Source: a virus (lineage: Duplodnaviria; Caudoviricetes). Taken from it: a stretch of DNA of 64,000 nt. A model generated the notes under the pieces. That model saw only the letters and a list, made by a program, of their open reading frames with translations, was not told the origin of the DNA and did not search any database. Location: the IMG/VR virus record IMGVR_UViG_2775507096_000001, positions 1-64,000 of that record; one strand, given 5' to 3'. Below are positions 3,406 through 41,318 of this stretch, one piece after another (within the stretch, counting starts at the first letter, position 1; the number at the start of each line of letters is the position of its first letter). The translations under genes were made by a program, and so were the position numbers.

Positions 3406-3681
3406 ATGTCCACTACCCGCATGCGACGCCGAAATGGCGCGCCCTTCCAGCACTCCCCGGAGGCGGTGAGGAGCGCCCGCGAGAACGCGGCGCTCAGTCA
3501 AAAGGCCTTGGCGGAGAAGTGCGGGATCAGCGCGCAGCTCCTCTGTGACATCGAGGCCGGCCGCAGGAACGCGACGCCGAACCGGCTGCGCGCGATGGCC
3601 CGCGTACTGGGCTGCGAGGTCGCAGACCTGCAACCGCGCAAGGACGAACCGCCTGCGGTCATCGAGAGGCAGGCGTCGTGA
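3406..3681 (+). CDS. Cro-like XRE HTH regulator
   Basis: LSQKALAEKCGISAQLLCDIEAGRR. Confidence 0.85.
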   Translation: MSTTRMRRRNGAPFQHSPEAVRSARENAALSQKALAEKCGISAQLLCDIEAGRRNATPNRLRAMARVLGCEVADLQPRKDEPPAVIERQAS

Positions 3682-3767
3682 ACACGCCCGCATGTGAAGA
3701 GGCCGCCGAGCCGTGCCGGGCTCAGCGGCCTCCATCCCCCGAACGAACCCATGTAGGAGAAGGAACG

Positions 3768-4868: not shown

Positions 4869-5815
4869 TGGCCCTGACCACCCTGAAGGAACGCGTGCAG
4901 GCGCGGGCGGCGGCGGTCGCCGACGCCGAGGACATCCGGCACGACCGGGCGGACGAGGGCGAGGAGATGCCCGCCGGCCACGGCCACGACGTCGAGCGGT
5001 TCCGTGCCGACATCGAGGCCGCGCTGCCGAAGCACGTCAGCGTCGACCTGTTCCTGGCCTCGCTGCGCCCCGTTCTGCCGAAGCTGCGGAAGTGCACGCC
5101 GGCGAGCGTGCTCCAGGCCGTCATCACGGCTGCCAGGTTCGGGCTGGTCCCCGATGGCCAGCAGGCGGTCATCACCGCCGACGACGGGATCGCGACGTTC
5201 CTCGCCACCTACGAGGGTTACGTCGAGCTGATGTACCGGTCGGGCCTGGTGAAGTCCGTGGTCGCGAACCTGGTGTACGAGGGCGACGAGTACGAGTTCG
5301 TGCCGACGGCCCGCGCCGGTGAGGACTTCGTGCACAAGCCGAACGTCCTCACGTCGAAGAAGAACCTCAAGCCGCTGTTCGCGTACGCGTTCGCGTGGCT
5401 GGAGGGCGGCGCCCGGTCGAACGTCGCGATCGTCACGCTGGAGGAAGCGGAGGAGATCCGCGACGAGCACTCCAGGGCGTACCAGCGGGCGGAGGCGAAC
5501 GGCCAGAAGAACAGCCTGTGGCACACCCGGTTCGACCGCATGCACCTGAAGACGGCGATCCGGCGCCTGGCGAAGCTGGTGCCCAAGTCGGCTGAGCTGC
5601 GGGCGCTGATCGCGGTCGAGCAGGCCGCCGAGGACGGCACGCCTCAGATTCTCACGGCGATCGACCCGGAGACAGCCGCGCTGGAGGGGGAGGCCCGACG
5701 AGCCGCGCGCGCGGCCGAGGCGTCGCAGGACGTCCCGGCGTCCCGCCTGCCGGTGAAGAAGCGGGGCCGGGCCAAGCCGAGGGCCCGCCGTCGTGACAGG
5801 AACAAGAGGCGGTAG
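4868..5815 (+). CDS. recT: RecT-family single-strand annealing protein
   Basis: CTPASVLQAVITAARFGLVPD, YEGYVELMYRSG, VYEGDEY, MHLKTAIRRLAK; coupled to YqaJ. Confidence 0.88.
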   Translation: MALTTLKERVQARAAAVADAEDIRHDRADEGEEMPAGHGHDVERFRADIEAALPKHVSVDLFLASLRPVLPKLRKCTPASVLQAVITAARFGLVPDGQQAVITADDGIATFLATYEGYVELMYRSGLVKSVVANLVYEGDEYEFVPTARAGEDFVHKPNVLTSKKNLKPLFAYAFAWLEGGARSNVAIVTLEEAEEIRDEHSRAYQRAEANGQKNSLWHTRFDRMHLKTAIRRLAKLVPKSAELRALIAVEQAAEDGTPQILTAIDPETAALEGEARRAARAAEASQDVPASRLPVKKRGRAKPRARRRDRNKRR

Positions 5816-23949: not shown

Positions 23950-24264
23950 TCAGGACGAGGGCTCATCCTTGGCTCGTGAGCCCCGGTTAGCCCAGGCCTT
24001 GTTGGGCTGCCGGGGCGGGACGGCGTACTTCTTGCCCACGATGCGAAGTGTCGCCTCGGTCCATGGCACGCGCGGGTGCGCGGCCACGGCTGCGAAGGGA
24101 AGGTCGGTGTCGGCCTTCAGCTCGTCCATCAGCGCCTTCTGAGCGGCGTGGCGCGTCTCCTCTTCCCGTTGGACGGCATCCTCCCAAGCCTTGATGGTTT
24201 CGAGTGTCTCCGGACTGGGCTTGTATTCGGGCAGCGGCTGCTTGCCGAAGTAGGGCTTGGGCAT
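23950..24264 (-). CDS. Small putative HTH regulator divergent from the repeat array
   Basis: Helical; LPFAAVAAHPRVPWTEATLRIVGKKY HTH-like; half-site of the array repeat upstream. Confidence 0.6.
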   Translation of the reverse strand: MPKPYFGKQPLPEYKPSPETLETIKAWEDAVQREEETRHAAQKALMDELKADTDLPFAAVAAHPRVPWTEATLRIVGKKYAVPPRQPNKAWANRGSRAKDEPSS

Positions 24265-24321
24265 GGCATCAGTCTTTCACGAGCCGATTTGCATAAACCG
24301 AGTGGGGGTGCCAGTCAGCGC

Positions 24322-24402
24322 TGATCCTTTACTTTTTCTTTGTCAAATCCATTTGTTAAAACTGGCTAGGGCAAGCTGATTTGGGAAGAATATGGATAGC
24401 AC
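24322..24402 (+). repeat. Array repeat R1 (promoter/operator)
   Basis: CAAATCCATTTG-TTAAAACTGGCTAGGG-CAAGCTGATTTG-GGAAGAAT. Confidence 0.85.
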
Positions 24403-24434
24403 CACAAACAGCCCCAGAACAGGAAGGACCGTCC

Positions 24435-25343: not shown

Positions 25344-25436
25344 TGACCTGCGGTTTTCTTTGCCCCTTCTTTATTGAATCGGCTTGTTAAAACTGGCTAG
25401 GGCAAGCTGATTCGGAAAGAATGAAAGTAGTTCAAA
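25344..25436 (+). repeat. Array repeat R2
   Basis: TGACCTGCGG...GAATCGGCTTG-N16-CAAGCTGATTC-GGAAAGAATGAAAGTAGTTCAAA. Confidence 0.9.
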
Positions 25437-25462
25437 CCACCACGACACGACAGGAGCGGGAC

Positions 25463-28078: not shown

Positions 28079-28145
28079 CAGTGCCACCCGACAGCCCGGG
28101 GCCGCCCGCACCGGAACTGCCCCCAACGAGAACAGGAAGACGAGC

Positions 28146-28661: not shown

Positions 28662-28667
28662 CAGCCC

Positions 28668-28761
28668 TCCGCCTGCGGGTTTCTTAGAAGTTCTTTTACT
28701 GAATCAGCTTGCTAAAACTGGCTAGGGCAAGCCGATTCGGAAAGAATGAAAGCAGTTCAAA
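28668..28761 (+). repeat. Array repeat R3
   Basis: Arms 28701-28711 and 28728-28738. Confidence 0.9.
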
Positions 28762-28793
28762 ACACCCCACCCCGCCAGGAAAGGGAGCCCGCC

Positions 28794-29051
28794 ATGGACG
28801 CCGCCACGATCACCGCCGTCTTCACCGCAGCCGCCACCGCCCAGAGCTGGACGCGCACGAACCTCGGCCTTACCACCCAGGTCAGCGCCGAGGACGGCTA
28901 CCGGTACACGGTCCGGCTCCCCAAGGACAGCGGCAAGGCGTTCATCGCGGGCCGCGACGGACACGCCGGCGACGAGCTGCTCGACATCGAGGCCACCTGG
29001 GGCCTGACCCTCCCGATCGTCGAAGCGGCCATGGCCGCCACCCGCATCTGA
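28794..29051 (+). CDS. Hypothetical protein
   Basis: AAGGGAG RBS. Confidence 0.65.
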   Translation: MDAATITAVFTAAATAQSWTRTNLGLTTQVSAEDGYRYTVRLPKDSGKAFIAGRDGHAGDELLDIEATWGLTLPIVEAAMAATRI

Positions 29052-29119
29052 CCCACCAGCCACCACGGGCCCGGTACCAGGCGGTACCGGGCCCCTTCCA
29101 CGCCCATACGGAGGCACTC

Positions 29120-30172
29120 ATGGAACAGCTCGACCTGTTCGCCGAGCTCGGCGAACCCGAAGCGCCGAAGCCGGGGAAGACGATCACCCTGCCGAAGCCG
29201 ACCGCCGGCCAGTACGCCACCACAGTGGCCAAGCCGTCGCAGCCGCAGCAGCCGGCCCTCATCCCGCAGGCCCCGCCCCGCCCCCGGCCGGAGTTCAGCA
29301 TCCGCCCCGCCGACGGCCCCACATTCGGTGAGGCCGTATCCACGGCCTGGCATCGGGCGCACGGCGGGAACCGCATGGAGATCCCACTCGGCATCGTCGC
29401 GACCCTCGCCCTGTGGCCACTGAAGGGACACCCGCGGACCCTCGCGAGGTTCTTCAAGGGCCTGGACGCCCAGCAACTCATGTCCTGTGTCCGGGAGGTA
29501 GCCGCCTACTGGTGGATGCGGCGACCCGACCTGATCGACACCGCCTCGGTCCTGTTCCGCTGGGCGGAGGAGGACCGGCACACGCCGAACGAGCTGGCAG
29601 CGATCCGGGCCACGTTCCACGCAGCGCTGGACCACAACGCCCTCGACCGCACCGGGCACGCGGACCCGGAGGCAAACAGCTGGATCGACCTGATGTCGTG
29701 GACGGTCACCAGCCTGCGTCACAACACGGCACGGCAGGGCCTCGGCGAGTACCACACGCCGCCCGAGGTGTGCGACATGATGGCCGCGCAGATCATCGGC
29801 GACGACCGCGAGGCGATCCGCGAGGGCTACTCGATCCTCGACCCGTGCGCCGGCACAGGCGGCATGGTCCGCTCCGCCGCCCAGCACCTGCGGGGCATGG
29901 GCCTGGACCCCGCCAAATTCACCTGGTTCGCGCAGGAGATCGACCCTCTGGCCGCAGCCGGGTGCGCCGTCAACATGATCGTGTGGGGGATGGGCCCGAA
30001 TGCCCTGGTGGCCTGCGGTGACACCTTGGCCGAAGGCGACCTCTGGCCCCGCGCCGTCGAGCACCGCCGCATCATGGTCGAGCGCAGGGATGACGCCGCC
30101 GCTCACATGGCCATCGTCCACGCGGTGGGTCGCGTGGAGCAGCTGGTCAACGGGGGCTCCCGGGCTGCCTGA
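29120..30172 (+). CDS. HsdM/N-6 DNA methylase-like protein lacking the NPPF motif
   Basis: GEYHTP, ILDPCAGTGGM, QEID, GDTL present; ends without NPP(F/Y); N-terminal QLDLF. Confidence 0.8.
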   Translation: MEQLDLFAELGEPEAPKPGKTITLPKPTAGQYATTVAKPSQPQQPALIPQAPPRPRPEFSIRPADGPTFGEAVSTAWHRAHGGNRMEIPLGIVATLALWPLKGHPRTLARFFKGLDAQQLMSCVREVAAYWWMRRPDLIDTASVLFRWAEEDRHTPNELAAIRATFHAALDHNALDRTGHADPEANSWIDLMSWTVTSLRHNTARQGLGEYHTPPEVCDMMAAQIIGDDREAIREGYSILDPCAGTGGMVRSAAQHLRGMGLDPAKFTWFAQEIDPLAAAGCAVNMIVWGMGPNALVACGDTLAEGDLWPRAVEHRRIMVERRDDAAAHMAIVHAVGRVEQLVNGGSRAA

Positions 30173-30260
30173 GCTGGGCTTCCTTGTCCGACATTTTACT
30201 GAATCGACTTGTTAAAACTGGCTAGGTCAAGCCGATTCGGAAAGAATGAGAGCAGTTCAA
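30170..30260 (+). repeat. Array repeat R4
   Basis: Starts at the upstream TGA stop; arms 30201-30211 and 30228-30238. Confidence 0.9.
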
Positions 30261-30294
30261 CCCCCACCCCACCCGCGCGAAAGGAAGGCCCCGA

Positions 30295-31842
30295 ATGGCC
30301 GCCGCACCTCACTCCACCGCGATCGCCCGCGTCCTGCGCGGTCTCGGCCTCACCCAGGGCAAGGGCTGCGACTTCCGTGTCACCGGCGACTACCGCAACG
30401 GTGAGCGGATCGGCACGTTCGTCGTCGTCCTCACCCGCCACGCGGAAGAGGTGATCGCCGAGCACGCCGACGAAATTGAGCGCCTGTCGGAAGAGGCCGG
30501 CTGGCCGTTCCATGTGTCGGTCCGCTACCACGACCGCGAGCGCCCGATGGTGACCGTTGCCAACTACGGCAGCCGCGTGCGTGAGGAGCCCCCCGTGAGC
30601 GCTGTGACCGCCGAGCCCGCCGAGGCCGCCGAGGCCGAGACCGTCGAACCCGCGGAGGTGGCCGTCGAGGCCGCGCACGAGGAGACGGCCGTACGGCCGG
30701 CGATCGTACCCGCCGTCCTCGGCTGGCTGTGGGCCGACGACCACGCGGCCACGGTGTCCTCGCCCCTGCGCGACATGATCCGCAGCAAGGAGTGCGACAA
30801 GTACGGGCGCCCGACGAAGGCCGCGTTCGAGCGGATCGCCGCCGAGCTGAACGCGCTCCCCGCCGACCCGGCCGCGCTCGCCCAGCTGTGGGCCGACGAC
30901 CACCGCGCCCCGGTGTGCTCGCCCCTGCGAGACATGGTCCGGGGCGACGAGTGCGACGACGGCGGGCAGCCGACGATGGTCGCGTTCGAGCGGATTGCGG
31001 CCGAGGTGAAGGCGCTGGCCCTCCCCGTGGCGGAGCCCCGCTCTGAGGAGAGCGGGCCGCGCGCGCTGCCCCCGGCCGAATCCGAGCCCGCAGCCGAGGA
31101 GGCACCCGACGACCTGAAGGCGCTGCGCCTGGAGCGGGCGCAGTCGGAGGCGCTGGGCTGGTCGCGAGGGCAAGCCGAGCTGGTCGCCGCCGCGGCGGCC
31201 GGACAGCTGTACCGGGACTTTGGCGCCGTCCTGCGGACCGTGCCCGTGCCGGGGCATCCCGGCCGGGTGGCGTCCATGCACCGGCTCGGGCCGCTGGTCG
31301 ACGCCGGGTTCCTGGCCGTCGACGAGCCCGACCCCACTGGCCGGCGTGCCGTCCGCGTCACCGCCGACGGCCGCCACGCCCTGGCCGTGTGGAAGCGGTG
31401 GCGGCCCTGGCCGGTGGAGAAGACCCGCAGCGAGGAGACCGAGAAGCTGCGTCCTCTCCTGCACGGAGCGCAGGCCAGACGGATCGCCGCCCTCGCCCGC
31501 GAGGAAGAGAAGAATCGGCGACGCGAGAGCGAGGAACTGTGGGCGGCGACGCGGCGGCTGCACGAGTGGGAAGAACGCGAGGAACGTCTGCGGTCGGCGT
31601 GGGCGCGCGTGAACGGCGTCCGGAACCGGTTCCAGCGGCGGCCGGTCGGCTGGGTGCCGACCGACGCGGAGATCGCGGAGTACCGCCTCGCCCCGGATGT
31701 GGTAGCCGAGCTGCGGGCAGACGCCGAGAACCCGAAACCGAAGCCCGAGCTGCCATCCCCTCGGCGGAGCGCGGGCGCGGAGCTGCCACCCCTGGAGGCG
31801 GATGACCAGACACCCGAGCAAACCTCTTTGCCTATCTTTTAA
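30295..31842 (+). CDS. 515-aa hypothetical protein with an internal duplicated domain
   Basis: LWADDH..SPLRDM.R..ECD..G.PT..AFERIAAE twice; stop lies inside R5. Confidence 0.75.
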   Translation: MAAAPHSTAIARVLRGLGLTQGKGCDFRVTGDYRNGERIGTFVVVLTRHAEEVIAEHADEIERLSEEAGWPFHVSVRYHDRERPMVTVANYGSRVREEPPVSAVTAEPAEAAEAETVEPAEVAVEAAHEETAVRPAIVPAVLGWLWADDHAATVSSPLRDMIRSKECDKYGRPTKAAFERIAAELNALPADPAALAQLWADDHRAPVCSPLRDMVRGDECDDGGQPTMVAFERIAAEVKALALPVAEPRSEESGPRALPPAESEPAAEEAPDDLKALRLERAQSEALGWSRGQAELVAAAAAGQLYRDFGAVLRTVPVPGHPGRVASMHRLGPLVDAGFLAVDEPDPTGRRAVRVTADGRHALAVWKRWRPWPVEKTRSEETEKLRPLLHGAQARRIAALAREEEKNRRRESEELWAATRRLHEWEEREERLRSAWARVNGVRNRFQRRPVGWVPTDAEIAEYRLAPDVVAELRADAENPKPKPELPSPRRSAGAELPPLEADDQTPEQTSLPIF

Positions 31843-31904
31843 TGAATCCGCTAGTTAAAACTGGCTAGGGGAAGCCATATCGGAAAGAATGAAAGTAGTT
31901 CAAA
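31812..31904 (+). repeat. Array repeat R5 (degenerate arms)
   Basis: GAATCCGCTAG-TTAAAACTGGCTAGGG-GAAGCCATATC-GGAAAGAATGAAAGTAGTTCAAA. Confidence 0.85.
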
Positions 31905-31936
31905 ACACACCAACTCACCTAGAACGGGAGCAAGTT

Positions 31937-32614
31937 ATGGCCGCCGACCTCGCCCAGGTCTTCCAGTCCCTGTCCGCCACGTACACGCGCCGCGAAGAGG
32001 CCGCCCGCACAAAGCTCGCCGACTGCCTCATGGACCTCGGCGCGGCCGTCGACACCAGCTTGGTCCGCGCCGCCATGGACGCCGCAGCCGAAGCCCTGCC
32101 GTTCAAGATGGTCCTCACGCACGCCGAGACGGCCGGCATCCGCGAGGCCCTGGCCGACATACGGAAGCAGCTGACCCGCCAGCTGCTGACCCGCTCGCCC
32201 GGCTCCAGCACCTGCCAGATCCGCAACGAGGCCGCCCGCATGGAGATCGACGCCGCCCAGCACTTCCTGGCGACCACCGACGGCCTCCTGGAACGGTTCG
32301 ACGACACCCCGGCCGAGGAGGCCACCCCGCAGGCCGAGCCCGAGCCGGCTCCCGCGCCCGCCCCGGTAGACGCCCCGAAGGTGACCCCGGCTCAGAAGCG
32401 GACCCTGGAGGCCATCAGGGACAACGGGGTCAAGCTCCAGGAGATGAGGGTCGGACAGGCGATCGTCCAGGTCACCAACGGCATCAAGCCGCGCAAGGAC
32501 ATGGTCGAGTTCGCCATCAGCCAGGGCTGGGCCACGAAGGACACCTCCACCTCCCTGTACGTCGGCCAGAAGGTCCAGCTGACGGCCCTCGGCGAGGCCA
32601 TCCTGGTCGGCTGA
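31937..32614 (+). CDS. Hypothetical protein, possible C-terminal wHTH
   Basis: GGGAG RBS; VTPAQKRTLEAI...VQLTALGEAIL. Confidence 0.7.
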   Translation: MAADLAQVFQSLSATYTRREEAARTKLADCLMDLGAAVDTSLVRAAMDAAAEALPFKMVLTHAETAGIREALADIRKQLTRQLLTRSPGSSTCQIRNEAARMEIDAAQHFLATTDGLLERFDDTPAEEATPQAEPEPAPAPAPVDAPKVTPAQKRTLEAIRDNGVKLQEMRVGQAIVQVTNGIKPRKDMVEFAISQGWATKDTSTSLYVGQKVQLTALGEAILVG

Positions 32615-32806
32615 CCCGGGCCGGCCGGCCGGGCCTCCGCCCGGCCGGCCCCGCCCCACCCGCCCGGCCGTGCCGGGCCTCGCGCGGGACCGCTCTCCAC
32701 GCAGGCCGAACGCCCCGATCCGGCCACCTCACAGCCCAGTTCACGGAACCGACCACCACAACCACCCGGCAGGGCCCAACGCGCCCACCAGAAGGGACAC
32801 AGCCCC

Positions 32807-33286
32807 ATGACCACCGAACCCACCGACCTCCAGCTGAGGGCCCTCGCCATCATCGCGGCCGGCGACGTCCGCCAGTTCGCGGCCGTACCTCACCCGGTCT
32901 TCATCGACAGCCCCGGCGGCACGATCTCCCCGCCGACCGTCAACGAGCTGGTCCAGGCGGGCTGGGTCCGCGTCGACTCCACGCGCAGCCTCCACGACGG
33001 CCAGGCCGTCGAGATCACCCAGTCCGGCCTGGCCCACCTACCGGGCAACACCGTCCCGGACATCCCGCAGGCCGCTGACGACCCCACCGGCGACCAGGTC
33101 CTCGCCGCCCTCATGCGGACCGTCATCCGCCACGGCCAGGTCGGCGTCGACTTCCACGACGACCTGGTGGAGGTCACCGGCGCCGACGACACGGTCCTGG
33201 CCACCCTCAGGGGTCGTTTCGACAGCCCCGCCCAGCTCGCCCGATTCCTCGACATCGACGAGGACTGCATCACCGACGCCCGCTGA
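32807..33286 (+). CDS. Hypothetical protein, possible N-terminal wHTH
   Basis: TDLQLRALAII...LVQAGWV...VEITQSGLAHL. Confidence 0.65.
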   Translation: MTTEPTDLQLRALAIIAAGDVRQFAAVPHPVFIDSPGGTISPPTVNELVQAGWVRVDSTRSLHDGQAVEITQSGLAHLPGNTVPDIPQAADDPTGDQVLAALMRTVIRHGQVGVDFHDDLVEVTGADDTVLATLRGRFDSPAQLARFLDIDEDCITDAR

Positions 33287-33317
33287 TGCTGGCCGAGAAG
33301 GCGGAGGAAACCGCTTC

Positions 33318-33408
33318 TGGCCTGCGGCTTTTGGAAGTTTCTTTGCTGAACTAGCTTGTTAAAACTGGCTAGGGTAAGCCGATTCGGAAAGAATGAAAGT
33401 AGTTCAAA
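33318..33408 (+). repeat. Array repeat R6
   Basis: Arms 33348-33358 and 33375-33385. Confidence 0.9.
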
Positions 33409-33438
33409 CCACCCCACCAACTAGCGATTGGACGCGCT

Positions 33439-34641
33439 ATGACCACCGCCACCACCCCCAAGGCACCCGCCAAGAAGGCCCCGGCCGCGAAGAAGCCCGC
33501 CAGAAAGGCCCCCACGACCAAGGCGACGCCCGCGAAGAAGACCGTCCCCGCCCCGGCCGGCGACGAGAAGCGGACCCAGTTCCGCACCATCCCCATCGGC
33601 AAGATCGACCGCGACCCGGGCCAGCCCCGCGAGCACTTCGACGAGGCTGCGCTTCAGGAACTGGCCGCCTCCATGAAGAAGCTGGGCCAGCTCCAGCCGA
33701 TCAACGTCCGCTACAACGAGGACACCAAGCGGTACACGATCATCATGGGCGAGCGCCGCTGGCGGGCCGCCCAGATGGCCGGCCTCACCCAGATGAAGGC
33801 CGTCGTCATGCACGGTGTCGGCGACGGCCGCGAGACCTTCGCCATGGCCGTCGCCGAGAACGTCGGCCGCGCGGACATGACCCCCGTTGAGGAGGCGAAG
33901 GCCTTCCACAAGCTGGCCGAGGCCGGGTACACCGTCGACGAGATCGCCGAGCTGGTCGGCAAGTCCGCCGCGTACGTCCAGTGGCGGATCGACCTGCTGA
34001 ACCTGTGCCCCGAGGCGCGCGAAGCCCTGGTGAAGGGGCAGCTCCCGGTCGGCCTGGCCTGGTACGTCGGGAAGCTCGCCAACGCCAACCAGGTCCGGTT
34101 CCTGTCGAAGTGGGTCCGAGGTGACTTCAAGTCGGCCCGGGACGCCGAGAGCTTCGCGCAGGCCCTGCACACCGAGGAGAAGCGGCAGCAGGAACAGGGC
34201 AGCTTCTTCGTCCTGTCCGACGAGGCCGCCGCCTCCCGCAAGGACAAGGGGCAGGACTCGCTGCCCGGTTCCCTCGACCTGCCCGACGAGGAGCGCGACC
34301 GCATCCTGGCCGACCGCTCGAAGCTGGTCGGGAAGATCGAGAAGCTCGGCCAGGTCGGCGAGATCCTCTCGCTGCTCGCCGCATCGGACCCGGAGGAACT
34401 CGCCCTGCTGCTCGCCGGCACGCCCGGTGGCATCGGCGGCCACCGCCTGCGGATCAAGCACCTCCAGGACATCGCGACCAAGGCCATGGCCAACCTGCGG
34501 AAGGCCGAGATGGTGGCCGAGGTCCGCGCGAGCGGCCTGACCGTCAACCCCGACGCCGAGGCCGCCGCCACGGCCGCCGAGGACGACGACGCCGAGGCTG
34601 CCACCCCGGCCGCCGCCGGCGACGCCGAAGCCGCCGCCTGA
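33439..34641 (+). CDS. ParB/RepB/Spo0J family protein with histone-H1-like N-tail
   Basis: QPREHFDEAALQELAASMKKLGQLQPI, GERRWRA, ENVGRADM, HTH; KAPAKKAPAAKK tail. Confidence 0.92.
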   Translation: MTTATTPKAPAKKAPAAKKPARKAPTTKATPAKKTVPAPAGDEKRTQFRTIPIGKIDRDPGQPREHFDEAALQELAASMKKLGQLQPINVRYNEDTKRYTIIMGERRWRAAQMAGLTQMKAVVMHGVGDGRETFAMAVAENVGRADMTPVEEAKAFHKLAEAGYTVDEIAELVGKSAAYVQWRIDLLNLCPEAREALVKGQLPVGLAWYVGKLANANQVRFLSKWVRGDFKSARDAESFAQALHTEEKRQQEQGSFFVLSDEAAASRKDKGQDSLPGSLDLPDEERDRILADRSKLVGKIEKLGQVGEILSLLAASDPEELALLLAGTPGGIGGHRLRIKHLQDIATKAMANLRKAEMVAEVRASGLTVNPDAEAAATAAEDDDAEAATPAAAGDAEAAA

Positions 34642-34695
34642 CACCCACCCCAGCGGCCCCGCCCCGAGGGCGGGGCCCACCCCCAGGAGCAGCGA

Positions 34696-35025
34696 GTGAT
34701 CGACATCGAAGCCAGTCCCCAGCTCACCTCGGAAGAGACCGAGGCAGCCGCCCGCCTGATCGCCCTCGCCGAGGCCCTCGGCCTCGAACCGCTTGACCTC
34801 GACGAAGCGGTACACGACGCCGCCGCCCGCTACGCCAGCGACGAGAGCAACACCGGCTCGTGGGACGACGTCGACTCCGACGCCGCCTACGACGAAGCAG
34901 GCAGGCAGGCCGCCGACCTCAACAACAGCGGCATGGACAACCAGATCCGCTACCTGGTGGCCCAGTGCGGCGCCGACCGTACCGAAGTCCACATCCGGGC
35001 CGCCGCCGGCCAGCACCACGCCTGA
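34696..35025 (+). CDS. Acidic hypothetical protein
   Basis: AGGAG RBS; D/E-rich. Confidence 0.65.
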   Translation: MIDIEASPQLTSEETEAAARLIALAEALGLEPLDLDEAVHDAAARYASDESNTGSWDDVDSDAAYDEAGRQAADLNNSGMDNQIRYLVAQCGADRTEVHIRAAAGQHHA

Positions 35026-35097
35026 GACCCGCCCACAGCGCGGCGCACCGCACCCCTGCGGTGCGCCCCCTTCCACCCCTCCAAGGAGACAGAAGCC

Positions 35098-35397
35098 ATG
35101 AAGGACCCCGTCAGCTTCCACAACCTGGACGTGCCCCCCTTCACTCCGTACGACATCGCGAAGGCCGCCCTGACGTACCTCGGCGACCAGTGGGGGGCAG
35201 ACCCCGGCCCCTGGGCCACCACCGGCCACCTCCGGGCCTGGGACGGCACCCCGTTCACCATCGGCGCCCAGCCGACCGGCGAGCTGTTCCTGCGCAACGA
35301 CCAGCTCGGCGACACGCTCGCGCTGCCGGTCAAGCCGACCGACGACCTCGACACCATCGCCCGCGCGGTCGACGAGACCGTAGGCCACCTCTACTGA
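35098..35397 (+). CDS. Hypothetical protein
   Basis: AAGGAG RBS. Confidence 0.65.
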   Translation: MKDPVSFHNLDVPPFTPYDIAKAALTYLGDQWGADPGPWATTGHLRAWDGTPFTIGAQPTGELFLRNDQLGDTLALPVKPTDDLDTIARAVDETVGHLY

Positions 35398-35447
35398 TCT
35401 AAGCCCCGTTCAGGGGGTCAGACCCCTATCCATCCAGGAGGAGTCCG

Positions 35448-36275
35448 ATGGAGATCCCAAGCGGCGTCTACGACGTCCTCACCGACGAGCGCACGGTCAT
35501 CGCCGGCGACCGCGTGCAGATCCCGTTCGAGCTGGACAGCGCCGTCTACAAGCAGGTGAACAAGATGCTGAAGGAGATCGGCGGCCGGTGGGACGGCCGA
35601 ACTGCGGTCCGCGCTCACGTCTTCCCGTTCGAGGTGGAGGCGTTCATGCGGGCCTGCCTCGCCACCCGCGAGTTCCCCACCCGGTACGAGCAGGGCTGGT
35701 ACCCGACCCCGCCGCGGGTGGTGGACGAGATGCTGGCCCACGCGGGCATCAGCGAGGGCATGAGCGTCCTGGAGCCCTCGGCGGGCACCGGCTCCATCGT
35801 GGGCCCGGCCGCCGAGTGCGGCGCGGTCGTCGACTGCGTCGAGATCGACGAGCGGCGCGTCGCAGTCCTCCGCGAGCAGGACGCCGCCCGCCGTATCGTG
35901 CACGCTGACTTCCTCGACCTGGACCCGCTCGACTGCCCCCACGGCTACAGCAGAGTGCTGATGAACCCGCCGTTCGCGGCGGCCGTGCAGCACGTGAAGC
36001 ACGCGCTGGGCTTCCTCGACGACGACGGCACGCTCGTCGCGGTCATGCCCGAGTCGGTGATGTGGCACAGCGACCGGGCCACCGTCGAGTTCCGTGAGCT
36101 GATCGCCCTCGCCGAGGGCACCTTCGCCCCGCTGCCCGACGACTCGTTCGCGCCGTCCGGGGCGAACGTGCGCACCGTCCTCCTGGTGGTCGACGCCGAG
36201 GCCGGCGGACCGCTGCCCACTCACGGCTGGCACCACAGCCAGCCCCGCCAGCTCGACCTGTTCATCACCCCCTGA
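35448..36275 (+). CDS. Amino (probably N6-adenine) DNA methyltransferase
   Basis: YPTP, VLEPSAGTG, EID, DF, NPPF; C-terminal QLDLF. Confidence 0.85.
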   Translation: MEIPSGVYDVLTDERTVIAGDRVQIPFELDSAVYKQVNKMLKEIGGRWDGRTAVRAHVFPFEVEAFMRACLATREFPTRYEQGWYPTPPRVVDEMLAHAGISEGMSVLEPSAGTGSIVGPAAECGAVVDCVEIDERRVAVLREQDAARRIVHADFLDLDPLDCPHGYSRVLMNPPFAAAVQHVKHALGFLDDDGTLVAVMPESVMWHSDRATVEFRELIALAEGTFAPLPDDSFAPSGANVRTVLLVVDAEAGGPLPTHGWHHSQPRQLDLFITP

Positions 36276-36360
36276 CCAGCGTCTCTTTTGGACTTCTTTA
36301 CCGAATCAGCTTGTGAAAGCTGGCTAGTGCAAGCCGATTCGGGGAGAATGTAAGTAGCAC
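36273..36360 (+). repeat. Array repeat R7
   Basis: Starts at the upstream TGA; arms 36303-36313 and 36330-36340. Confidence 0.88.
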
Positions 36361-36385
36361 TACCCGCAGACCGGAAAGGACGAGG

Positions 36386-36805
36386 ATGGACCTCGCCACC
36401 TGCACCTACCAGGAGTTCACGCCCGAGATGGGCGCTCCGATCCGCACCACCGCAGGCCACCCCAGATTCACGCTCGGCTACGAACTGCGCGGCCACGCCC
36501 GGCTCATCACACCGACTCGGGAACTGCTCGCCCAGAACCTCCCCCAGGACGCGTACGAGTTCAGCTACCGGCGCATCCTGAACGGCCACGGCATCGACCG
36601 CATCTACGCCGAACTGGCCGGCCTCGCCGGCCGCAACGGCGGTGCCCGCCTGGTCCTGCTCTGCTTCGACCGCCTCGACAAGCTGCCCCCGGCGGACGCC
36701 TGGTGCCACCGGCTGCACTTCGCGAAGTGGTGGCTGGAGCAGACCGGCGAGCCGATCCCCGAACTCGGCGCCCAGCGGCCGACCCCGCCGCCCTCCCTCT
36801 TCTGA
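36386..36805 (+). CDS. DUF488-like protein
   Basis: LVLLCFD...WCHR motif. Confidence 0.65.
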   Translation: MDLATCTYQEFTPEMGAPIRTTAGHPRFTLGYELRGHARLITPTRELLAQNLPQDAYEFSYRRILNGHGIDRIYAELAGLAGRNGGARLVLLCFDRLDKLPPADAWCHRLHFAKWWLEQTGEPIPELGAQRPTPPPSLF

Positions 36806-36829
36806 CCACCACCCCACAAGGAGGACGCC

Positions 36830-37009
36830 ATGCCCGGCGCCTACTGCACGTTCTGCCGCCGCCGCTGCTTCGTCTACCGGATCATCCCCGACGGGCCCCG
36901 GAAGGGATGGGCGGGGCACCTCGCCACCTGCGCCCGCGGCATGGCGCACGACCGCGAGCAGACCGGGCACGACCACACGACGGCCATCAACCCGGCCCAG
37001 AGCCACTGA
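36830..37009 (+). CDS. Small Cys/His protein
   Basis: AAGGAGG RBS; CTFCRRRC...HLATC (not in ORF track). Confidence 0.6.
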   Translation: MPGAYCTFCRRRCFVYRIIPDGPRKGWAGHLATCARGMAHDREQTGHDHTTAINPAQSH

Positions 37010-37022
37010 CACAGCCAGCACG

Positions 37023-37353
37023 ACCAGCCGGCCGGAACCCCATGGGGTCCCGGCCGGACCCACACCCGAAAGGAATGAAGCCGTGAGCACAACCCAGGCC
37101 CGACCCGAATCGAACCCGGCCGGTGACGAACTCCTCGCTGGCGTCATCGCCCGCATCGGCTCCTGGGGCGCCCTCGGCGTCATGCGTTCCGCCGTCGAGC
37201 TGTACGGCGAGAACGGCGACCCGAACGACGTCCTGAGCGACACCCAGGTCGAACAGCTCGCCGCGCTCGCCAAGTACTTCGACCAGGCCTGACGACCGCC
37301 ACCAGCCGGCCGGGACCCCACGGGATCCCGGCCGGACTCACACCCGGAAGGAA
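37023..37353 (+). repeat. 53-bp hairpin+RBS direct repeat pair (37023-37075, 37301-37353)
   Basis: ACCAGCCGGCCGGRACCCCAYGGGRTCCCGGCCGGACYCACACCCGRAAGGAA. Confidence 0.8.
37083..37292 (+). CDS. Small hypothetical protein between direct repeats
   Basis: AAGGA RBS, GTG start. Confidence 0.6.
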   Translation: MSTTQARPESNPAGDELLAGVIARIGSWGALGVMRSAVELYGENGDPNDVLSDTQVEQLAALAKYFDQA

Positions 37354-37357
37354 CGCC

Positions 37358-37744
37358 ATGCGCCACCGCGAGGGCTGCAAGGGCCCGCACCTCAACCCCG
37401 GAGAGACCGCCATCCCGGCCGGCGACGTCCGCAAAGGCGACATCGTGCTCGCCGCCACGATCGAGCTGAACGGCCACACCGACCGGCTCGACCACGCCAC
37501 CCCGTACACCGCCGACCCCCGGCCCGACGACCCCGGCTGCGGCTGCGCCGGACACCGCAGCCTCACCGCCGAGGACCGCGCGAAGCCACTCGTCGTCCTG
37601 TACGACGGCCCGATCTGGGACGGAGCGTGCGACGTCGTCCCCGCCGACGCGCTCGTGATCATCCGCGAGCGCGCCGAGGAACGCCCCGCCCCGTCGCGCG
37701 AGCAGAGCGGCATGGATGTGCTCCGCGACCTGCTCCGCCTCTGA
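37358..37744 (+). CDS. Hypothetical protein
   Basis: AAGGA RBS. Confidence 0.65.
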   Translation: MRHREGCKGPHLNPGETAIPAGDVRKGDIVLAATIELNGHTDRLDHATPYTADPRPDDPGCGCAGHRSLTAEDRAKPLVVLYDGPIWDGACDVVPADALVIIRERAEERPAPSREQSGMDVLRDLLRL

Positions 37745-37813
37745 CCAGACCACCACGACGGGCGGGACGCCTCGATGTCCCGCCCGTCGCCCATACCCGG
37801 AAGGAACGAACCC

Positions 37814-38437
37814 TTGAGCGAGATCGAGACCAGAGTCTGCATCGACGACACGCTCGGCCCGTACGACGCGCGGCTGGACCCCGGCCGCCGCTGGAACGGC
37901 TTTCTGATGCCCCGCTTCACCCTCGACACCGTCCGCCGGCTCTCCGTCCGGACGCTGGAACTGGCGGACGAGTACGGCTACGACTCCGTGGAGACGGTGC
38001 ACGTCATCGACGGCTACTCCGACAGCCCGAGCAGCGTCCACTTCATCGAGGGCGGCACCGACCGCGAGGGCAACCCGAGGGGGGCCGTCGCGCACATCCG
38101 CTGGCCGTTCCTCGATGAGGACCCCGACAGGGCCGTGTCGTTCTTCACCGGCCGCCCCGGCGCCCAGGTGAAGCCCGTGGAGCCCGCCGCGGTGGGCGTG
38201 CGCCGCACGGTCGTGTTCACCATGAGCTGGCAGTGGTGGGAGGAAGACCGGGGCGCTGAAGGAATCGCCGACGTCTACCAGCCCGACGATGAGTGCCGCT
38301 ACGGCATCGGCGGCGGCTCGTGGTGCTGGCACTTCGCCGGCTGGTGGTGCGCCTGCGGCAGGGACAACGACTGGCACGTCCTAAAGTGCCCGAGCTGCGA
38401 ACTGCCCCGCGACGCCCAGCCTGCGAAGACCACCTGA
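37814..38437 (+). CDS. Hypothetical protein with C-terminal Zn ribbon
   Basis: WWCACG...CPSC. Confidence 0.65.
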   Translation: MSEIETRVCIDDTLGPYDARLDPGRRWNGFLMPRFTLDTVRRLSVRTLELADEYGYDSVETVHVIDGYSDSPSSVHFIEGGTDREGNPRGAVAHIRWPFLDEDPDRAVSFFTGRPGAQVKPVEPAAVGVRRTVVFTMSWQWWEEDRGAEGIADVYQPDDECRYGIGGGSWCWHFAGWWCACGRDNDWHVLKCPSCELPRDAQPAKTT

Positions 38438-38465
38438 CCTCTCCCACCCCAGCAAGGAGCAAGTT

Positions 38466-38732
38466 GTGCCCATGATCGCCGCCTTTCCGGCCGAGAAGTG
38501 CACCGTCCGGCTCGTCAGCCTCGCCACCGGCGAGGAGATCAAGCCCGGCCAGTTGATCCCCGAGCCGTACGGGCGCGGGCAGATCACCTACCTCGGCCCC
38601 ACCGTCACCCGCGCGGAGGGCGCCAAGAAGGGTCGGCCCGGTCGGGTCGCGGTCGTCCGGTACTCGTCACCGGAAACCGACTGGGTGTTCCTGCCCGCCG
38701 AGCTGAACGCCCGGTACGAAGACCTCGTCTGA
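38466..38732 (+). CDS. Hypothetical protein
   Basis: AAGGAG RBS; stop is the first 3 nt of R8. Confidence 0.65.
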   Translation: MPMIAAFPAEKCTVRLVSLATGEEIKPGQLIPEPYGRGQITYLGPTVTRAEGAKKGRPGRVAVVRYSSPETDWVFLPAELNARYEDLV

Positions 38733-38821
38733 CCTGCGGTTTTCTTAGAAGTTCTTTTACTGAATCGGCTTGTTAAATCTGGCTAGGGTAAGTCGATTCA
38801 GGAAGAATGATCTTGATCCAA
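38730..38821 (+). repeat. Array repeat R8
   Basis: Arms 38762-38772 and 38789-38799. Confidence 0.9.
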
Positions 38822-38852
38822 CCACCACCCCGACCAGCGACCGGGAGACCGC

Positions 38853-39374
38853 ATGCGCGCCAACATCCGCCGCACCACCCTCGACGCCCTCCACGCCGAC
38901 GCGGACGCCGCCCTGGCCCAGCTCAACATCGACGCGGACGCTGCCTACATCTGGACCCTCACCATCTGGCAGCCCGGCCAGCCCACCACCGAGCGCACCG
39001 AACTGGTCCCCGGCCGTGAACTCGCCACGCTGGTCCGCGTCCAGCTCCTCACCTCCATGCACGAGATCGAGCAGGACGAGACCACCGGCACGATCACCAC
39101 CCGCTGGACCCGGCAGAGCAAGCGGAACAACTACCGCACCCAGCAGGCAGTGTTCGCGAAGCTCAGCGACGGCCAGGCCGCCACCCTGACCGCCCGCGCC
39201 GCCTCCACCCCCCACACCCCCGCCCACGCGCTCGACGACCCCGCCCGGTTTGTCAGCCGCCGCGTCCTGGCCCCCGCCCCGGCCGCCCGGCCCCGGGCCA
39301 CCGTCCCCGCCCGCCCGAAGGTCTGCGACCGCTGCTTCCAGGTGCCCGCCGCCAACGGCACCTGCGGCTGCTGA
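38853..39374 (+). CDS. Hypothetical protein with C-terminal Cys cluster
   Basis: GGGAG RBS; CDRC...CGC. Confidence 0.7.
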   Translation: MRANIRRTTLDALHADADAALAQLNIDADAAYIWTLTIWQPGQPTTERTELVPGRELATLVRVQLLTSMHEIEQDETTGTITTRWTRQSKRNNYRTQQAVFAKLSDGQAATLTARAASTPHTPAHALDDPARFVSRRVLAPAPAARPRATVPARPKVCDRCFQVPAANGTCGC

Positions 39375-39446
39375 CCTCCCACCCCGCCCAGCCGGCGCCG
39401 CCCCGACCGGGGCGGCGCCCACCCATGCCAGCAAGGAGAGAACGAC

Positions 39447-41195
39447 GTGCCCTACATAGACGCCACCACGCGCGCCATGGCGGCGGCGTCCACCGCCACC
39501 ACCCCCAGCCCCGCCCGCGCGTACAAGCACGACGGCAGCGTGCTGACCGCCATGAGCTGGTTCTGCGGGGCCGGCGGCGATACACAGGGCGCCGACGCGG
39601 TCCCCGGCGTCCAGGTCACCAGAGGCGCGAACCACTGGGACGTCGCGCTCGCCACCCACGCCTGGAACAACCCGCACTGCGACCTGTGGAAGGGCGACAT
39701 CCGCCGGGCCCCGGTCGAGAAGTGGCCGGTCTGCCAGCTGTTCTGGGCGTCGCCCGAGTGCCCGAAGTGGTCGGCGGCCCGAGGTGTGAAGGTCGACTTC
39801 GACCGCACGCTGCAAGGCGACTTCGACTTCGACGAGCCCGAGTTCAAGAGCGAGAAGGAGCGCCGGGCCGCCGAGGAGCGCAGCCGCGCCCTCATGGAAG
39901 AAGTCCCGATGTACCTGCGGGGCGTCATCAACCGCGGCGGCCTGGTCCTCGGCGGAGTCGTCGAGAACGTCATTGACTGCCGGGGCTGGGACCAGTGGGA
40001 CCGCTGGGTCGGCGAGTTCCACAAGCTCGGGTACCGGACCAAGCTCCTGGCGATCAACTCGATGCACGTCGCCCCCCGCACTCTCGACCGCGTCCCACAG
40101 TCCCGCGACAGGCTGTACTTCGTCTACTGGCACGAGAGCCTGGGCCGAGACCCCGACTTCGACAAGTGGGTGCTGCGGCCGGACGCCTGGTGCTACGACT
40201 GCGAAGAGCAGGTCCGCTCAGTCCAGGTCTTCCGCAAGCCCGGCAAGGACATGGGCCGCTACCGGCAGAGCTACGACTACCGCTGCCCCCGCTCGGACTG
40301 CCGGGCGGTTGTTGAGCCGTACGTCCTCCCCGCGGCGGCTGCCATCGACTTCACGATCCCGGGAACGCCGATCGGCGACCGCGAGAAGACCGACGACTGC
40401 CCCGAGGGCCTGGCCCCGGCCACGATCGCCCGCATCCGGGCCGGCGGCTCCAAGTACTGGGGCTGGGGCGCGGACTTCCACCAGCTGGACGGGCAGGACT
40501 CGCTGTTCGGCGACGTCGACGAAGAACAACTGCCTGAGGCCCCTGGCAGCCCGCTCCTCGTCCCAGCCGGCGGGACCTGGCGGGACAAAGCCATCCACCT
40601 TGGCCAGCCCATGCCGACCAGGACGACGGTCGAGACCGACGGCATCGCCTTCCCGCCCCTGCTGATCCCCTGCGAGGGCCGCACCGGAAAGAAGGCCATG
40701 CGGCTGGAAGACCCGCTGCGCACCCAGACGGCCCGAGCCGAGACCGCCCTCGCCTACCTCCCGTTCGTGGTCCCCATGCGGGGCGGCGGCGACAAGGAGA
40801 AGGCCCGTCACATCGGCCACCCACTCCACACCGTCTCGGCCGGCGGCAACCACCACGGCCTGGTGACCGCCCCGGATCACCTCCTCGTCCCGTACTACGG
40901 CAACGGGCAGGCCCGCCCGGTCACCGACCCGATCGGAGCGCTGCCCACCCGGGACCGCTACGCGCTGGTCAGCCGGGACTTCCGGATCGACGACGTCCTG
41001 TTCCGGATGCTCCAGCCCGAGGAGATCAAGAAGGCGATGGCGTTCAGGGGGAAGTACAAGATCCTGGGCTCCAAGCGGCACCAGGTGCGTCAGCTCGGCA
41101 ACGCGGTCACCCCGGCGGTCGCGGAAGTCCTGTACTGCGCGCTGGTCGAGTGCATCACCGGCGAGGAGATCGACCGGTACGCGATGGTCGCCTGA
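39447..41195 (+). CDS. DNA (cytosine-5) methyltransferase
   Basis: FCGAGG, SPEC (catalytic Cys), ENV, QSRDR, GNAV; internal QDSLF. Confidence 0.9.
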   Translation: MPYIDATTRAMAAASTATTPSPARAYKHDGSVLTAMSWFCGAGGDTQGADAVPGVQVTRGANHWDVALATHAWNNPHCDLWKGDIRRAPVEKWPVCQLFWASPECPKWSAARGVKVDFDRTLQGDFDFDEPEFKSEKERRAAEERSRALMEEVPMYLRGVINRGGLVLGGVVENVIDCRGWDQWDRWVGEFHKLGYRTKLLAINSMHVAPRTLDRVPQSRDRLYFVYWHESLGRDPDFDKWVLRPDAWCYDCEEQVRSVQVFRKPGKDMGRYRQSYDYRCPRSDCRAVVEPYVLPAAAAIDFTIPGTPIGDREKTDDCPEGLAPATIARIRAGGSKYWGWGADFHQLDGQDSLFGDVDEEQLPEAPGSPLLVPAGGTWRDKAIHLGQPMPTRTTVETDGIAFPPLLIPCEGRTGKKAMRLEDPLRTQTARAETALAYLPFVVPMRGGGDKEKARHIGHPLHTVSAGGNHHGLVTAPDHLLVPYYGNGQARPVTDPIGALPTRDRYALVSRDFRIDDVLFRMLQPEEIKKAMAFRGKYKILGSKRHQVRQLGNAVTPAVAEVLYCALVECITGEEIDRYAMVA

Positions 41196-41285
41196 CCTGC
41201 GGTTTCCTTAGAAGTTCCTTTACTGAATCGGCTTGTCAAAACTGGCTAGGGCAAGCCGATTCGGGCAGAATGAAAGTAGTTCAAA
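41193..41285 (+). repeat. Array repeat R9 (perfect 11-bp arms)
   Basis: GAATCGGCTTG 41225-41235 / CAAGCCGATTC 41252-41262; starts at the upstream TGA. Confidence 0.9.
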
Positions 41286-41318
41286 AACACACCAACCTGC
41301 ACAGAAGGGCAGCGAGCC

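Follow-up and report, generated by a model that had tools for sequence, protein, structure and literature searches.

Genes of unrelated families in the accessory arm of temperate Streptomyces prophages end on one and the same triplet, the TGA near the left edge of an intergenic repeat of ~105 bp. In an alignment of 57 repeat copies from 10 related Streptomyces prophages, whose copies are not phylogenetically independent, the TGA is kept in the same column in 44 copies and the upstream gene ends exactly on it in 29. The coincidence between gene end and TGA is far beyond chance. We consider it somewhat probable that the repeats are composite regulatory modules of the PeSL (promoter-early stem-loop) type, that the gene ends collapsed onto them by erosion of the spacer in between, and that general recombination shuffles the resulting units.

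The repeat array and its module

The window, which is the whole stretch of 64,000 nucleotides that was analysed, contains nine repeat copies packed within 17 kb of the accessory arm. Their core motifs are co-oriented and lie at 24358, 25389, 28714, 30214, 31857, 33361, 36316, 38775 and 41238 (expectation in shuffled sequence 0.01); in a scan of the whole 98.7-kb provirus the core motif was limited to these nine. All copies point the same way as the genes, and the distance from the AG.AT box to the RBS and start codon is 35-45 nt. The copies are as follows.

R1, 24313..24418, plus strand: dyad, core, AGAAT box and leader present, without the TGACCTGCGG left module, which is the sole missing part; the upstream gene is divergent, not co-directional
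R2, 25344..25449, plus strand: a complete terminator-like hairpin (CCGCAG..CTGCGG, then a T-run) has the TGA in its loop; the gene upstream ends at a TAG, 23 nt earlier
R3, 28669..28774, plus strand: no repeat TGA; the TGA of the upstream gene (28659-28661) lies 10 nt before the aligned position
R4, 30170..30274, plus strand: TGA (30170-30172) is the stop of the N6-MTase-like gene
R5, 31812..31917, plus strand: left module degenerate; entered by the 515-aa ORF, which stops at a TAA (31840-31842)
R6, 33316..33421, plus strand: TGG in the TGA column; the upstream 159-aa ORF stops 32 nt earlier, and the repeat heads a ParB-like gene
R7, 36273..36376, plus strand: TGA is the stop of the 275-aa gene with a methyltransferase-like fold (end: QLDLF and three codons)
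R8, 38730..38835, plus strand: TGA is the stop of the 88-aa ORF
R9, 41193..41298, plus strand: TGA is the stop of the 582-aa C5 DNA methyltransferase gene

The genes that bear on the argument are the following.

23950..24264, minus strand: divergent 104-aa gene, back-to-back with R1; a lead towards a candidate regulator
28709..30172 (open frame), plus strand: N6_Mtase-like gene, family f5/F17 (N6_Mtase match, 4e-12); its true start is probably after the 85-aa gene at 28794-29051
30295..31842, plus strand: 515-aa ORFan, family f21, phrog_15616; its unit occupies a different slot in the relative G1
35448..36275, plus strand: 275-aa gene, family f6; sub-threshold RrnaAD/MTS matches only (methyltransferase fold, weak)
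38466..38732: 88-aa ORF, stop on the TGA of R8
39447..41195, plus strand: C-5 cytosine DNA methyltransferase, family f7/F8 (C-5 DNA_methylase match, 2e-11)

The ORFs that end on a repeat TGA and the 515-aa ORF have a GC3 of 0.84-0.97 and are thus credible genes. The majority of the genes flanking repeats have neither a Pfam nor a PHROG match; the cargo of the accessory arm consists of methyltransferases, the ParB-like gene and ORFans, and the gene content of the array region varies among 11 relatives.

The module can be divided into four parts. At the 5' end stands a gene-end relic that reads C-TGA-CCTGCGG and then runs into a T-rich stretch; it is the loop and the 3' half of a terminator hairpin, of which one junction still has the whole. 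It is followed by an 11-bp dyad with covarying arms around an almost invariant 12-mer (AAAACTGGCTAG), by an invariant AG.AT box, which we read as a -10-like element, and by a conserved C/A-rich leader that reaches the RBS and start codon. The arms of the dyad are paired in 82.6% of cases, and 45 cells were changed on both sides versus 22 in shuffles (reached by 0/500). Among the mismatches G-T (48) and A-C (44) are about equally frequent, without strand bias, and selection is therefore not on a single folded strand. The outer stem TTCTTT/AAAGAA is not claimed, since it pairs in two registers, a consequence of a T-rich side facing an A/G-rich one. A scan with the sigma-70 promoter consensus returned 0 sites; the best -35/-10 candidate (TGGCTA, 17 nt, AAGAAT) matches the E. 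coli consensus at ~7/12 positions, with the AG.AT positions invariant. We infer that the repeats may act as promoters. A phage sigma factor that would read the core was considered and rejected, as only scattered HTH-like r4 matches and no Sigma70_r2 domain were found.

The core could also be the binding site of a regulator. Stoperators of cluster A mycobacteriophages (L5) are repressor-binding sites, and a comparable operator array, to which the phage repressor or the 104-aa protein binds, would leave the TGA stop as a by-product of compaction against an essential binding site. The asymmetric, nearly invariant 12-mer with a single orientation relative to transcription agrees with such a role, as do the small divergent gene that adjoins R1, whose product gave weak helix-turn-helix leads (Atlas scores 0.88-0.89), and the genome-wide shifts of the core in one relative, a possible co-evolution with a binding protein. 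We nevertheless regard an operator array as unlikely: the Atlas scores are leads only and the 104-aa protein matches neither Pfam nor PHROG, a sequence-reading dimer would not select covarying arms, and the length of ~105 bp and the fixed distance to the start codons suit a promoter plus leader.

The array had no megablast match among phage records, and one repeat, compared by distant blastn, was absent from all of 50,697 phage and 72,556 plasmid records. A pattern scan of a genome collection gave 120 hits, most of which are chance matches because the pattern is too degenerate; the Streptomyces loci alone were confirmed with nhmmer. Nothing relevant was found in the literature on intergenic repeats in Streptomyces phages, including TurkishDelight.

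Gene ends at the repeat TGA

The initial annotation had reported that four genes of the window stop in frame on the first triplet of R4, R7, R8 and R9 (30170-72, 36273-75, 38730-32 and 41193-95) and that the 515-aa ORF stops inside R5. Both observations were confirmed. The description of three of these four genes as MTase-like is clear for the N6_Mtase and C-5 DNA_methylase matches, whereas for 35448-36275 it depends on the sub-threshold matches. The TGA lies at -45 from the core in R8 and R9, at -44 in R4 and at -43 in R7, and so falls in a common alignment column only after indels of 1-2 nt. Between R8 and R9 the similarity extends ~36 nt 5' of the TGA, so the start of homology does not always coincide with it. 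In DNA sequence, the last ~12 codons of the 88-aa ORF resemble the end of the C5-MTase gene (last ~40-100 nt); the proteins are not similar, and the idea that the 88-aa ORF is a truncated C5-MTase was dropped in favour of a DNA likeness of the gene end only.

The claim that unrelated genes end on one nucleotide of the repeat also held outside the window, as the arrangement recurs in 11 related prophages. A prophage of this family (locus L032) is carried by Streptomyces longwoodensis DSM 41677. The genes that end on the TGA belong to about 10 BLAST-distinct families. In the window 4 of the 8 repeats with a co-directional gene upstream match one specified triplet as stop, and in the prophage locus L146 the upstream gene ends on the TGA in 4 of 9 copies. 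Only 3 ORFs read into the repeat, versus 29 that stop in frame 0. Where the repeat TGA is unused as a stop it is mutated in several copies, with the adjacent CCTGCGG kept.

In a second explanation the left module would be a working terminator or attenuator, and the stop would be selected in the loop, so that ribosomes leave the hairpin unmelted and the gene end is fixed. It is in line with the stem-loops of PeSLs, which function as terminators, and with the F19|F2 junction of six prophages, at which a clean hairpin (CCGCAGG..CCTGCGG) with a T-run behind it has the TGA in its loop. At the 29 junctions with the stop on the TGA, however, pairing of the last codons with CCTGCGG is no stronger than in control gene ends or codon shuffles (mean -7.15 versus -7.56 kcal/mol for the control gene ends), which indicates that at most copies the left module does not work as a terminator. 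The idea of a terminator built from the gene end and CCTGCGG was therefore dropped for want of excess stability. Likewise, a terminator scan gave 7 calls against 6.5 in shuffles, leaving most repeats uncalled. Selection of the stop for terminator protection thus appears quite improbable.

Orthologous junctions differ in the distance between gene and repeat. The f5 gene ends in GCT-GCC-TGA, the TGA being the repeat's own in the window (W), G2, G1, L082 and L091, whereas in G3 the same terminal codons are followed by the TGA of the gene, 11 nt and then a separate repeat TGA. Similarly, the f9 gene ends in GCG-GCC-TGA directly on the repeat in G1, and with the same terminal codons 12 nt before the repeat TGA in L082. 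The F20 and F23 junctions have variable spacers of 5-20 nt. Taken over f5, f9, F20 and F23, orthologous genes end 0 to about 20 nt before the repeat. In L091 a change from TGA to CGA lets an ORF continue into the repeat. The left module tracks the upstream gene weakly (identity 0.71 versus a background of 0.68) and the gene downstream slightly better (0.75); the latter would also fit formation of the junction at the left edge.

Exchange of repeat-bounded units

Units bounded by repeats were moved, gained and lost between relatives. The f21 unit precedes the f5 unit in G1 and follows it in W and L082; G3 has an additional single-gene unit between F8 and the next unit; and W lacks a single-gene f30 unit that G2, L051, L091 and L146 have. 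Homology blocks end at repeat positions -9..+13 or +91..+116. At repeat junctions 64% of genome pairs differ in the downstream neighbour, versus 37% elsewhere (p = 0.004; the pairs are not phylogenetically independent), but when all predicted ORFs are counted the enrichment of breakpoints at repeats is not significant (71% versus 61%, p = 0.26). Rearrangement breakpoints are also frequent at gene boundaries without a repeat and inside genes. The initial annotation had named scattered breakpoints, together with a lack of excised units, as the observation that would speak against a defined junction; breakpoints are indeed common away from repeats, close to what it described, yet in the former count they are enriched at the repeats.

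Repeats are slightly more similar within a genome (0.759) than between genomes (0.745), a difference reached by 26 of 2000 permutations, and in G1 genome-specific states are common to 5-6 of its 7 copies. A single crossover point in chimeric copies (for example W_R9 compared with G3_R8 and G3_R9) was sought and not resolvable at about 20% divergence, because the informative sites alternate.

The recombination genes of the provirus are the following.

3678-4868, plus strand: RecE-like exonuclease, part of the RecE/RecT region (3678..5626)
5081-5626, plus strand: RecT match, part of the same region
98040-98615 of the provirus: tyrosine integrase, the single Phage_integrase match, at the far end, about 57 kb from the array

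RecE-like exonuclease and RecT are the phage's own general recombination system. Apart from these and the one tyrosine integrase no recombinase was found in the provirus, and none near the array; a serine recombinase or resolvase-type enzyme was likewise absent from it.

The proposal of a defined junction, as in cassette systems, was therefore sustained in part. Unrelated genes do share their last nucleotide and repeat-bounded units do move, but a fixed, mechanistically defined junction of the integron type is not supported, in view of the variable spacers at the f5, f9, F20 and F23 junctions, the mutation of the unused TGA, the breakpoints away from repeats and the lack of a recombinase near the array. 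The alternative offered in the initial annotation, deletion pressure that halts at the edge of the repeat, fits the data better.

We think it very unlikely that the repeats form an integron-like, site-specific cassette system, in which a dedicated recombinase would recognise the hairpin repeat and join cassettes at one set nucleotide, either in the TGA or beside it. A phage-borne variant of it, given the same low standing, would have hairpin or cruciform sites on which an unrecognised protein or a dyad-guided RecT joins units at C-TGA-C. The contact of unrelated genes with the repeat at the same nucleotide, the covarying arms of the dyad (as in attC), the changes in presence and position of single-gene units and the slightly better tracking of the downstream gene by the whole repeat would all be expected of such a system. 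Against it stand, besides the variable or absent spacers, the decay of the unused TGA, the breakpoints away from repeats and the location of the sole tyrosine integrase at the prophage end, the near equality of G-T and A-C mismatches, which unlike in attC gives no sign of selection on a single folded strand, and the units of up to 5-6 genes, each with its own promoter-like element. If a cassette exchanger did exist, temperate Streptomyces phages would swap self-expressed counter-defence genes (methyltransferases, ParB-like) as single units.

Least probable of the readings is a role of the repeat as RNA: the repeat would be a site between cistrons at which a transcript is processed, or an element in the 5'-UTR of a long read-through transcript to which a protein binds, with the stop directly ahead of the fold. 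The stem covariation and the conservation of the leader as far as the RBS are offset by the missing strand asymmetry of the mismatches, a weak RNAalifold structure (only -2.3 kcal/mol), the lack of a match to the Rfam 15 covariance models at E <= 1 and the many copies with only 5-8 of 11 Watson-Crick pairs around a 16-nt loop.

According to the preferred reading, that of PeSL-like modules with eroded spacers, each module of ~105 bp would head one transcription unit in the hyperplastic accessory arm of temperate Streptomyces phages. Where a short spacer between the TGA of the gene and that of the module is lost, the two TGAs would merge and leave the protein unchanged, because the module brings its own TGA and its left edge resembles a generic high-GC gene end (C-TGA-C). 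Deletions that reach further would damage the module, and out-of-frame fusions would be rare. As spacer loss would be harmless and longer deletions damaging, gene ends would accumulate exactly on the TGA, and we infer that the collapse took this route. The ~100 bp of shared sequence would at the same time provide portable homology for general recombination, by the phage RecE/RecT or the host, so that recombination between repeats is presumably homologous; whole units could be moved, deleted and inserted in this way, as has been proposed for PeSL cassettes.

Comparison with known systems

The PeSL regulatory cassettes of T4-type phages are conserved motifs of ~100 bp (Arbiol et al. 2010, PMC2839356; Comeau et al. 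2014, PMC4122927) that carry an early promoter of sigma-70 consensus and give rise to mini-circles when neighbouring motifs recombine. By analogy, the arrangement in the Streptomyces prophages appears closest to these, and closer to them than to an integron. Both are conserved composite intergenic motifs of ~100 bp, concentrated in an ORFan-rich hyperplastic region, whose left end is the stop codon of the preceding gene, within A/T-rich sequence, and whose right end is the RBS with the start codon. Both combine a promoter-type core (predicted from sequence in the present case) with a stem-loop, both flank indels and replacements between relatives, although breakpoints are here not exclusive to the repeats, and both occur with general phage recombination genes only, without a dedicated recombinase. 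The differences are that the sequences are unrelated, that the host is Streptomyces and the phage a temperate siphovirus-like prophage with 70% GC, that the core does not match the sigma-70 consensus, that a conserved triplet within the module supplies the stop codon, and that the stem has a conserved 16-nt loop and is not a G/C-run terminator.

With the attC cassettes of integrons the array shares co-oriented units separated by imperfect inverted repeats with covarying arms, ORFs that may end at or inside the repeat, and units that are reordered or differ in presence. Unlike an integron it lacks an integrase next to it, an attI and a promoter common to all units; every unit brings a promoter-like element and may hold several genes, a strand-specific folding signal is lacking, and the junction with the upstream gene is not fixed between orthologues.

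Short motifs of actinobacteriophages provide another comparison. In cluster K mycobacteriophages SAS motifs overlap the RBS, and ESAS motifs with imperfect inverted repeats lie upstream of this start-associated motif (PMC3203893). Stoperators and SAS/ESAS motifs resemble the present repeats in being conserved, in one orientation, in short intergenic gaps near stop and start codons; they are of unrelated sequence and measure 13-17 bp, compared with about 105 bp here. We know of no report of a shared stop codon that is supplied by stoperators or SAS/ESAS motifs.

So far, the documented cases of PeSL "mobile regulatory cassettes" come from T4-like lytic myoviruses, and their authors noted that such plasticity was not yet evidenced in other viruses. 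An analogue of unrelated sequence in temperate actinophages of high GC would make portable promoter modules look like a general means, reached by convergence, of shuffling accessory genes in phages. With its built-in stop codon the module could take any upstream gene without an intergenic spacer, and the three methyltransferase-type genes and the ParB-like gene are plausible anti-restriction cargo. About 60 natural junctions form a ready-made set on which these ideas can be tested.

Finally, the closest cultured relative is the Streptomyces phage TurkishDelight (NC_073473), whose major capsid protein is 83% identical. In the equivalent arm of its genome, too, single genes are headed by intergenic repeats, of which there are at least 7, all co-oriented. 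Their sequence is unrelated, and the place of the upstream stop relative to the repeat varies, as judged by the annotated gene ends. They carry a TTGAC-type -35 box overlapped by a palindrome and are the better match to a sigma-70-type promoter.

Genes ending on the stop codon of the repeat

The full provirus record measures 98.7 kb at 70.5% GC, and the window covers its first 64 kb, encoding a RecE-like exonuclease, RecT, a ParB-like protein, N6- and C5-type DNA methyltransferases, terminase, portal and major head proteins. Among cultured phages the nearest is TurkishDelight, a temperate phage of Streptomyces (83% identity in the major capsid protein), and several Streptomyces genomes harbour related prophages. 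The recombinases of the provirus are RecE/RecT and only one tyrosine integrase, located about 57 kb from the array; a serine recombinase was not found in it. The genes between the repeats (24381-39374) are mostly ORFans, without a Pfam or PHROG match. The exceptions in or near the array are three methyltransferase-type genes and:

33439-34641, ParB-like gene
41563-42672, ChlI/Lon-like gene

The 19-nt core of the repeat has nine copies (R1-R9), all on the + strand, against an expectation of 0.01 from shuffles, and no further copy is present elsewhere in the provirus. The copies can be aligned across about 105 nt, with indels needed for a common column since the distance from TGA to core varies between 43 and 45 nt. 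As the initial annotation had it, four ORFs, with ends at 30172, 36275, 38732 and 41195, have as their stop codon the TGA at the head of this alignment, and the 515-aa ORF stops within R5, on a TAA. It had also called three of these four genes methyltransferase-like, which is clear for two; the third has a weak methyltransferase-fold match.

The same repeat was located in three IMG/VR proviruses, in a fourth (L146) and in seven Streptomyces genome loci, but not in the collections of cultured phages or plasmids. Among 57 copies from 10 prophages, L146 being counted separately, the TGA stands in the same column in 44, and for 29 copies it forms the exact end of a long, high-GC3 ORF. In this set 16 upstream genes stop 5-40 nt before the repeat and three ORFs run into it; L146 adds nine copies, four with a gene end on the TGA. 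The genes ending on the TGA form about 10 BLAST-distinct families. The observation is confirmed and holds generally. By these counts the C-TGA-CCTGCGG motif and the following T-rich run belong to the repeat, and they are kept even where the TGA is not used as a stop.

Two observations concern individual gene ends. The similarity between R8 and R9 extends about 36 nt 5' of the TGA, and the 88-aa ORF before R8 (38466-38732), compared with 41063-41195, shows same-frame DNA similarity to the final ~12 codons, or more, of the C5-methyltransferase gene before R9. This DNA similarity suggests a partial duplication that carried gene end plus repeat; BLASTP shows no similarity between the two proteins. 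The 275-aa methyltransferase-fold gene, with orthologues in seven related prophages or loci (G1-G3, L051, L082, L091 and L146), has at its end (36249-36275) a QL(D/G/A)LF motif, separated from the TGA by exactly three variable codons in all relatives seen. A similar motif, QLDLL, ends the f21 gene of G1, f21 being the family of the window's 515-aa ORFan. We take QL(D/G/A)LF to resemble a beta-clamp-binding motif.

Fixed or variable junctions

The exact coincidence of gene end and repeat had been read as a defined junction, as in cassette systems. The modular, repeat-bounded and shuffled units agree with this, but there is no fixed joint, since the spacers at orthologous junctions vary. The N6-methyltransferase-like gene (f5) ends in GCT/GCC-GCC-TGA, the TGA being the repeat's own in five prophages, whereas in G3 the gene's TGA is followed by 11 nt and then a separate repeat TGA. 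Similarly, the terminal GCG-GCC-TGA of family f9 falls on the repeat in G1, while in L082 it precedes the repeat's TGA by 12 nt, and at the F20 and F23 junctions spacers of 5-20 nt differ among relatives. An unused TGA is mutated in five copies (to TGG, TGC or CGA, or lost as in R3) with CCTGCGG retained; in one of these, in L091, the change to CGA lets the ORF continue into the repeat. The orthologous junctions thus argue against one defined joint.

A built-in stop codon combined with spacer erosion explains the exact junctions better than a site-specific joint. Loss of short spacers would bring the TGA of the gene into coincidence with that of the module, a process possibly aided by microhomology in the common C-TGA-C context, and the junction states observed are those to be expected. 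An integron does not fit, given the lack of an adjacent integrase, of a single-strand signal and of a fixed boundary.

At the F20/f15 junction (repeat R3 of G3; L146:5002-5052) three TGAs, 11 nt apart and in frames 0, 2 and 1, precede the repeat, and the first 11-nt unit is similar to the left edge of the repeat itself. Repeated joining at C-TGA-C could have left them as scars, or they could serve as a three-frame stop; G3 and L146 share this orthologous junction, which counts as one event.

Anatomy of the module

The repeat consists, in 5'-to-3' order, of:

left module: TGA, CCTGCGG and T-rich run
left arm: 11 bp
loop: 16 nt, containing an almost invariant 12-mer
right arm
invariant AG.AT box
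conserved C/A-rich leader, and beyond it a variable stretch containing RBS and start codon

The arms are 82.6% paired and covary, with changes on both sides in 45 cells vs 22 in shuffles (0/500 shuffles reach 45). Since G-T and A-C mismatches occur with equal frequency (48 vs 44), the RNAalifold structure is weak and Rfam has no match for the repeats, the symmetry looks like a DNA-level property and not a strand-specific RNA fold.

R1, which lies downstream of a divergent gene, lacks only the left module, which marks this part as belonging to gene ends. At the F19/F2 junction of six prophages the TGA lies within the loop of a clean hairpin, with a T-run behind it, whereas the terminal codons at the 29 junctions with a gene end on the TGA show no stronger pairing with CCTGCGG than control gene ends (-7.15 vs -7.56 kcal/mol). 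In appearance, then, the left module corresponds to the loop plus 3' half of a terminator, intact at one junction only.

Position, orientation, a -10-like box and a constant distance to the start codon make the repeat a candidate promoter; a sigma-70 scan gave no site, and no sigma region-2 domain was found in the phage. The divergent 104-aa gene back-to-back with R1 (23950-24264, - strand) is conserved in G2 and G3. Its product has no Pfam or PHROG match; its Atlas neighbours include a cluster named putative helix-turn-helix protein (score 0.88), which is a lead only.

Unit shuffling and comparison with known systems

The mapping of breakpoints in homologous arrays, proposed in the initial annotation, showed units shuffled at the repeats, but clear breakpoints also at plain gene boundaries and inside f21. 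The f21 unit precedes the f5 unit in G1 and follows it in the window's prophage and L082, G3 has one extra single-gene unit, and a single-gene f30 unit of four prophages is missing from the window's. The R4-R5 interval holds f21 in the window vs four other genes in G2, and homology blocks terminate at repeat edges. With singleton ORFs ignored, 64% of genome pairs have a different downstream neighbour at repeat junctions, compared with 37% at other junctions (p = 0.004); when every ORF is included, the two do not differ significantly. The leader strongly tracks the downstream gene, while the left module tracks neither neighbour strongly. There is slight homogenisation among the copies of one genome, clearest in G1, as would be expected from exchange between repeats or from co-evolution involving a binding factor.

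In G1, 5-6 of the 7 non-orthologous copies carry the same genome-specific core variants (GC to CA immediately 3' of the 12-mer; AGAAT to AGGAT), pointing to concerted evolution or co-evolution with a trans-acting factor.

The closest description of the repeat is the promoter-early stem-loop (PeSL) cassette. PeSLs are conserved motifs of about 100 bp in hyperplastic regions of T4-type phages, in which upstream stop codons come first, then an early promoter and stem-loop, and SD and start codon last; modular shuffling proceeds by homologous recombination, and mini-circles are formed (PMC2839356, PMC4122927). The prophage repeat is PeSL-like in every feature examined except the sigma-70 consensus, but unrelated in sequence, host and phage type. 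TurkishDelight (NC_073473, 74.5-86.8 kb; L013:29478-41789) carries at least seven co-oriented intergenic repeats, each heading a single hypothetical gene, with a 16-bp palindrome that overlaps a TTGAC-type -35 box, and with a -10-like box. This region is an analogous modular arm with promoter-like palindromic repeats, although unrelated in sequence to the window's repeat.

Downstream of the array, one gene is flanked by 58-bp direct repeats (43139-43196 and 43913-43970, 97% identical; also 42679-42712) containing a G+C-rich hairpin, a second repeat family distinct from R1-R9.
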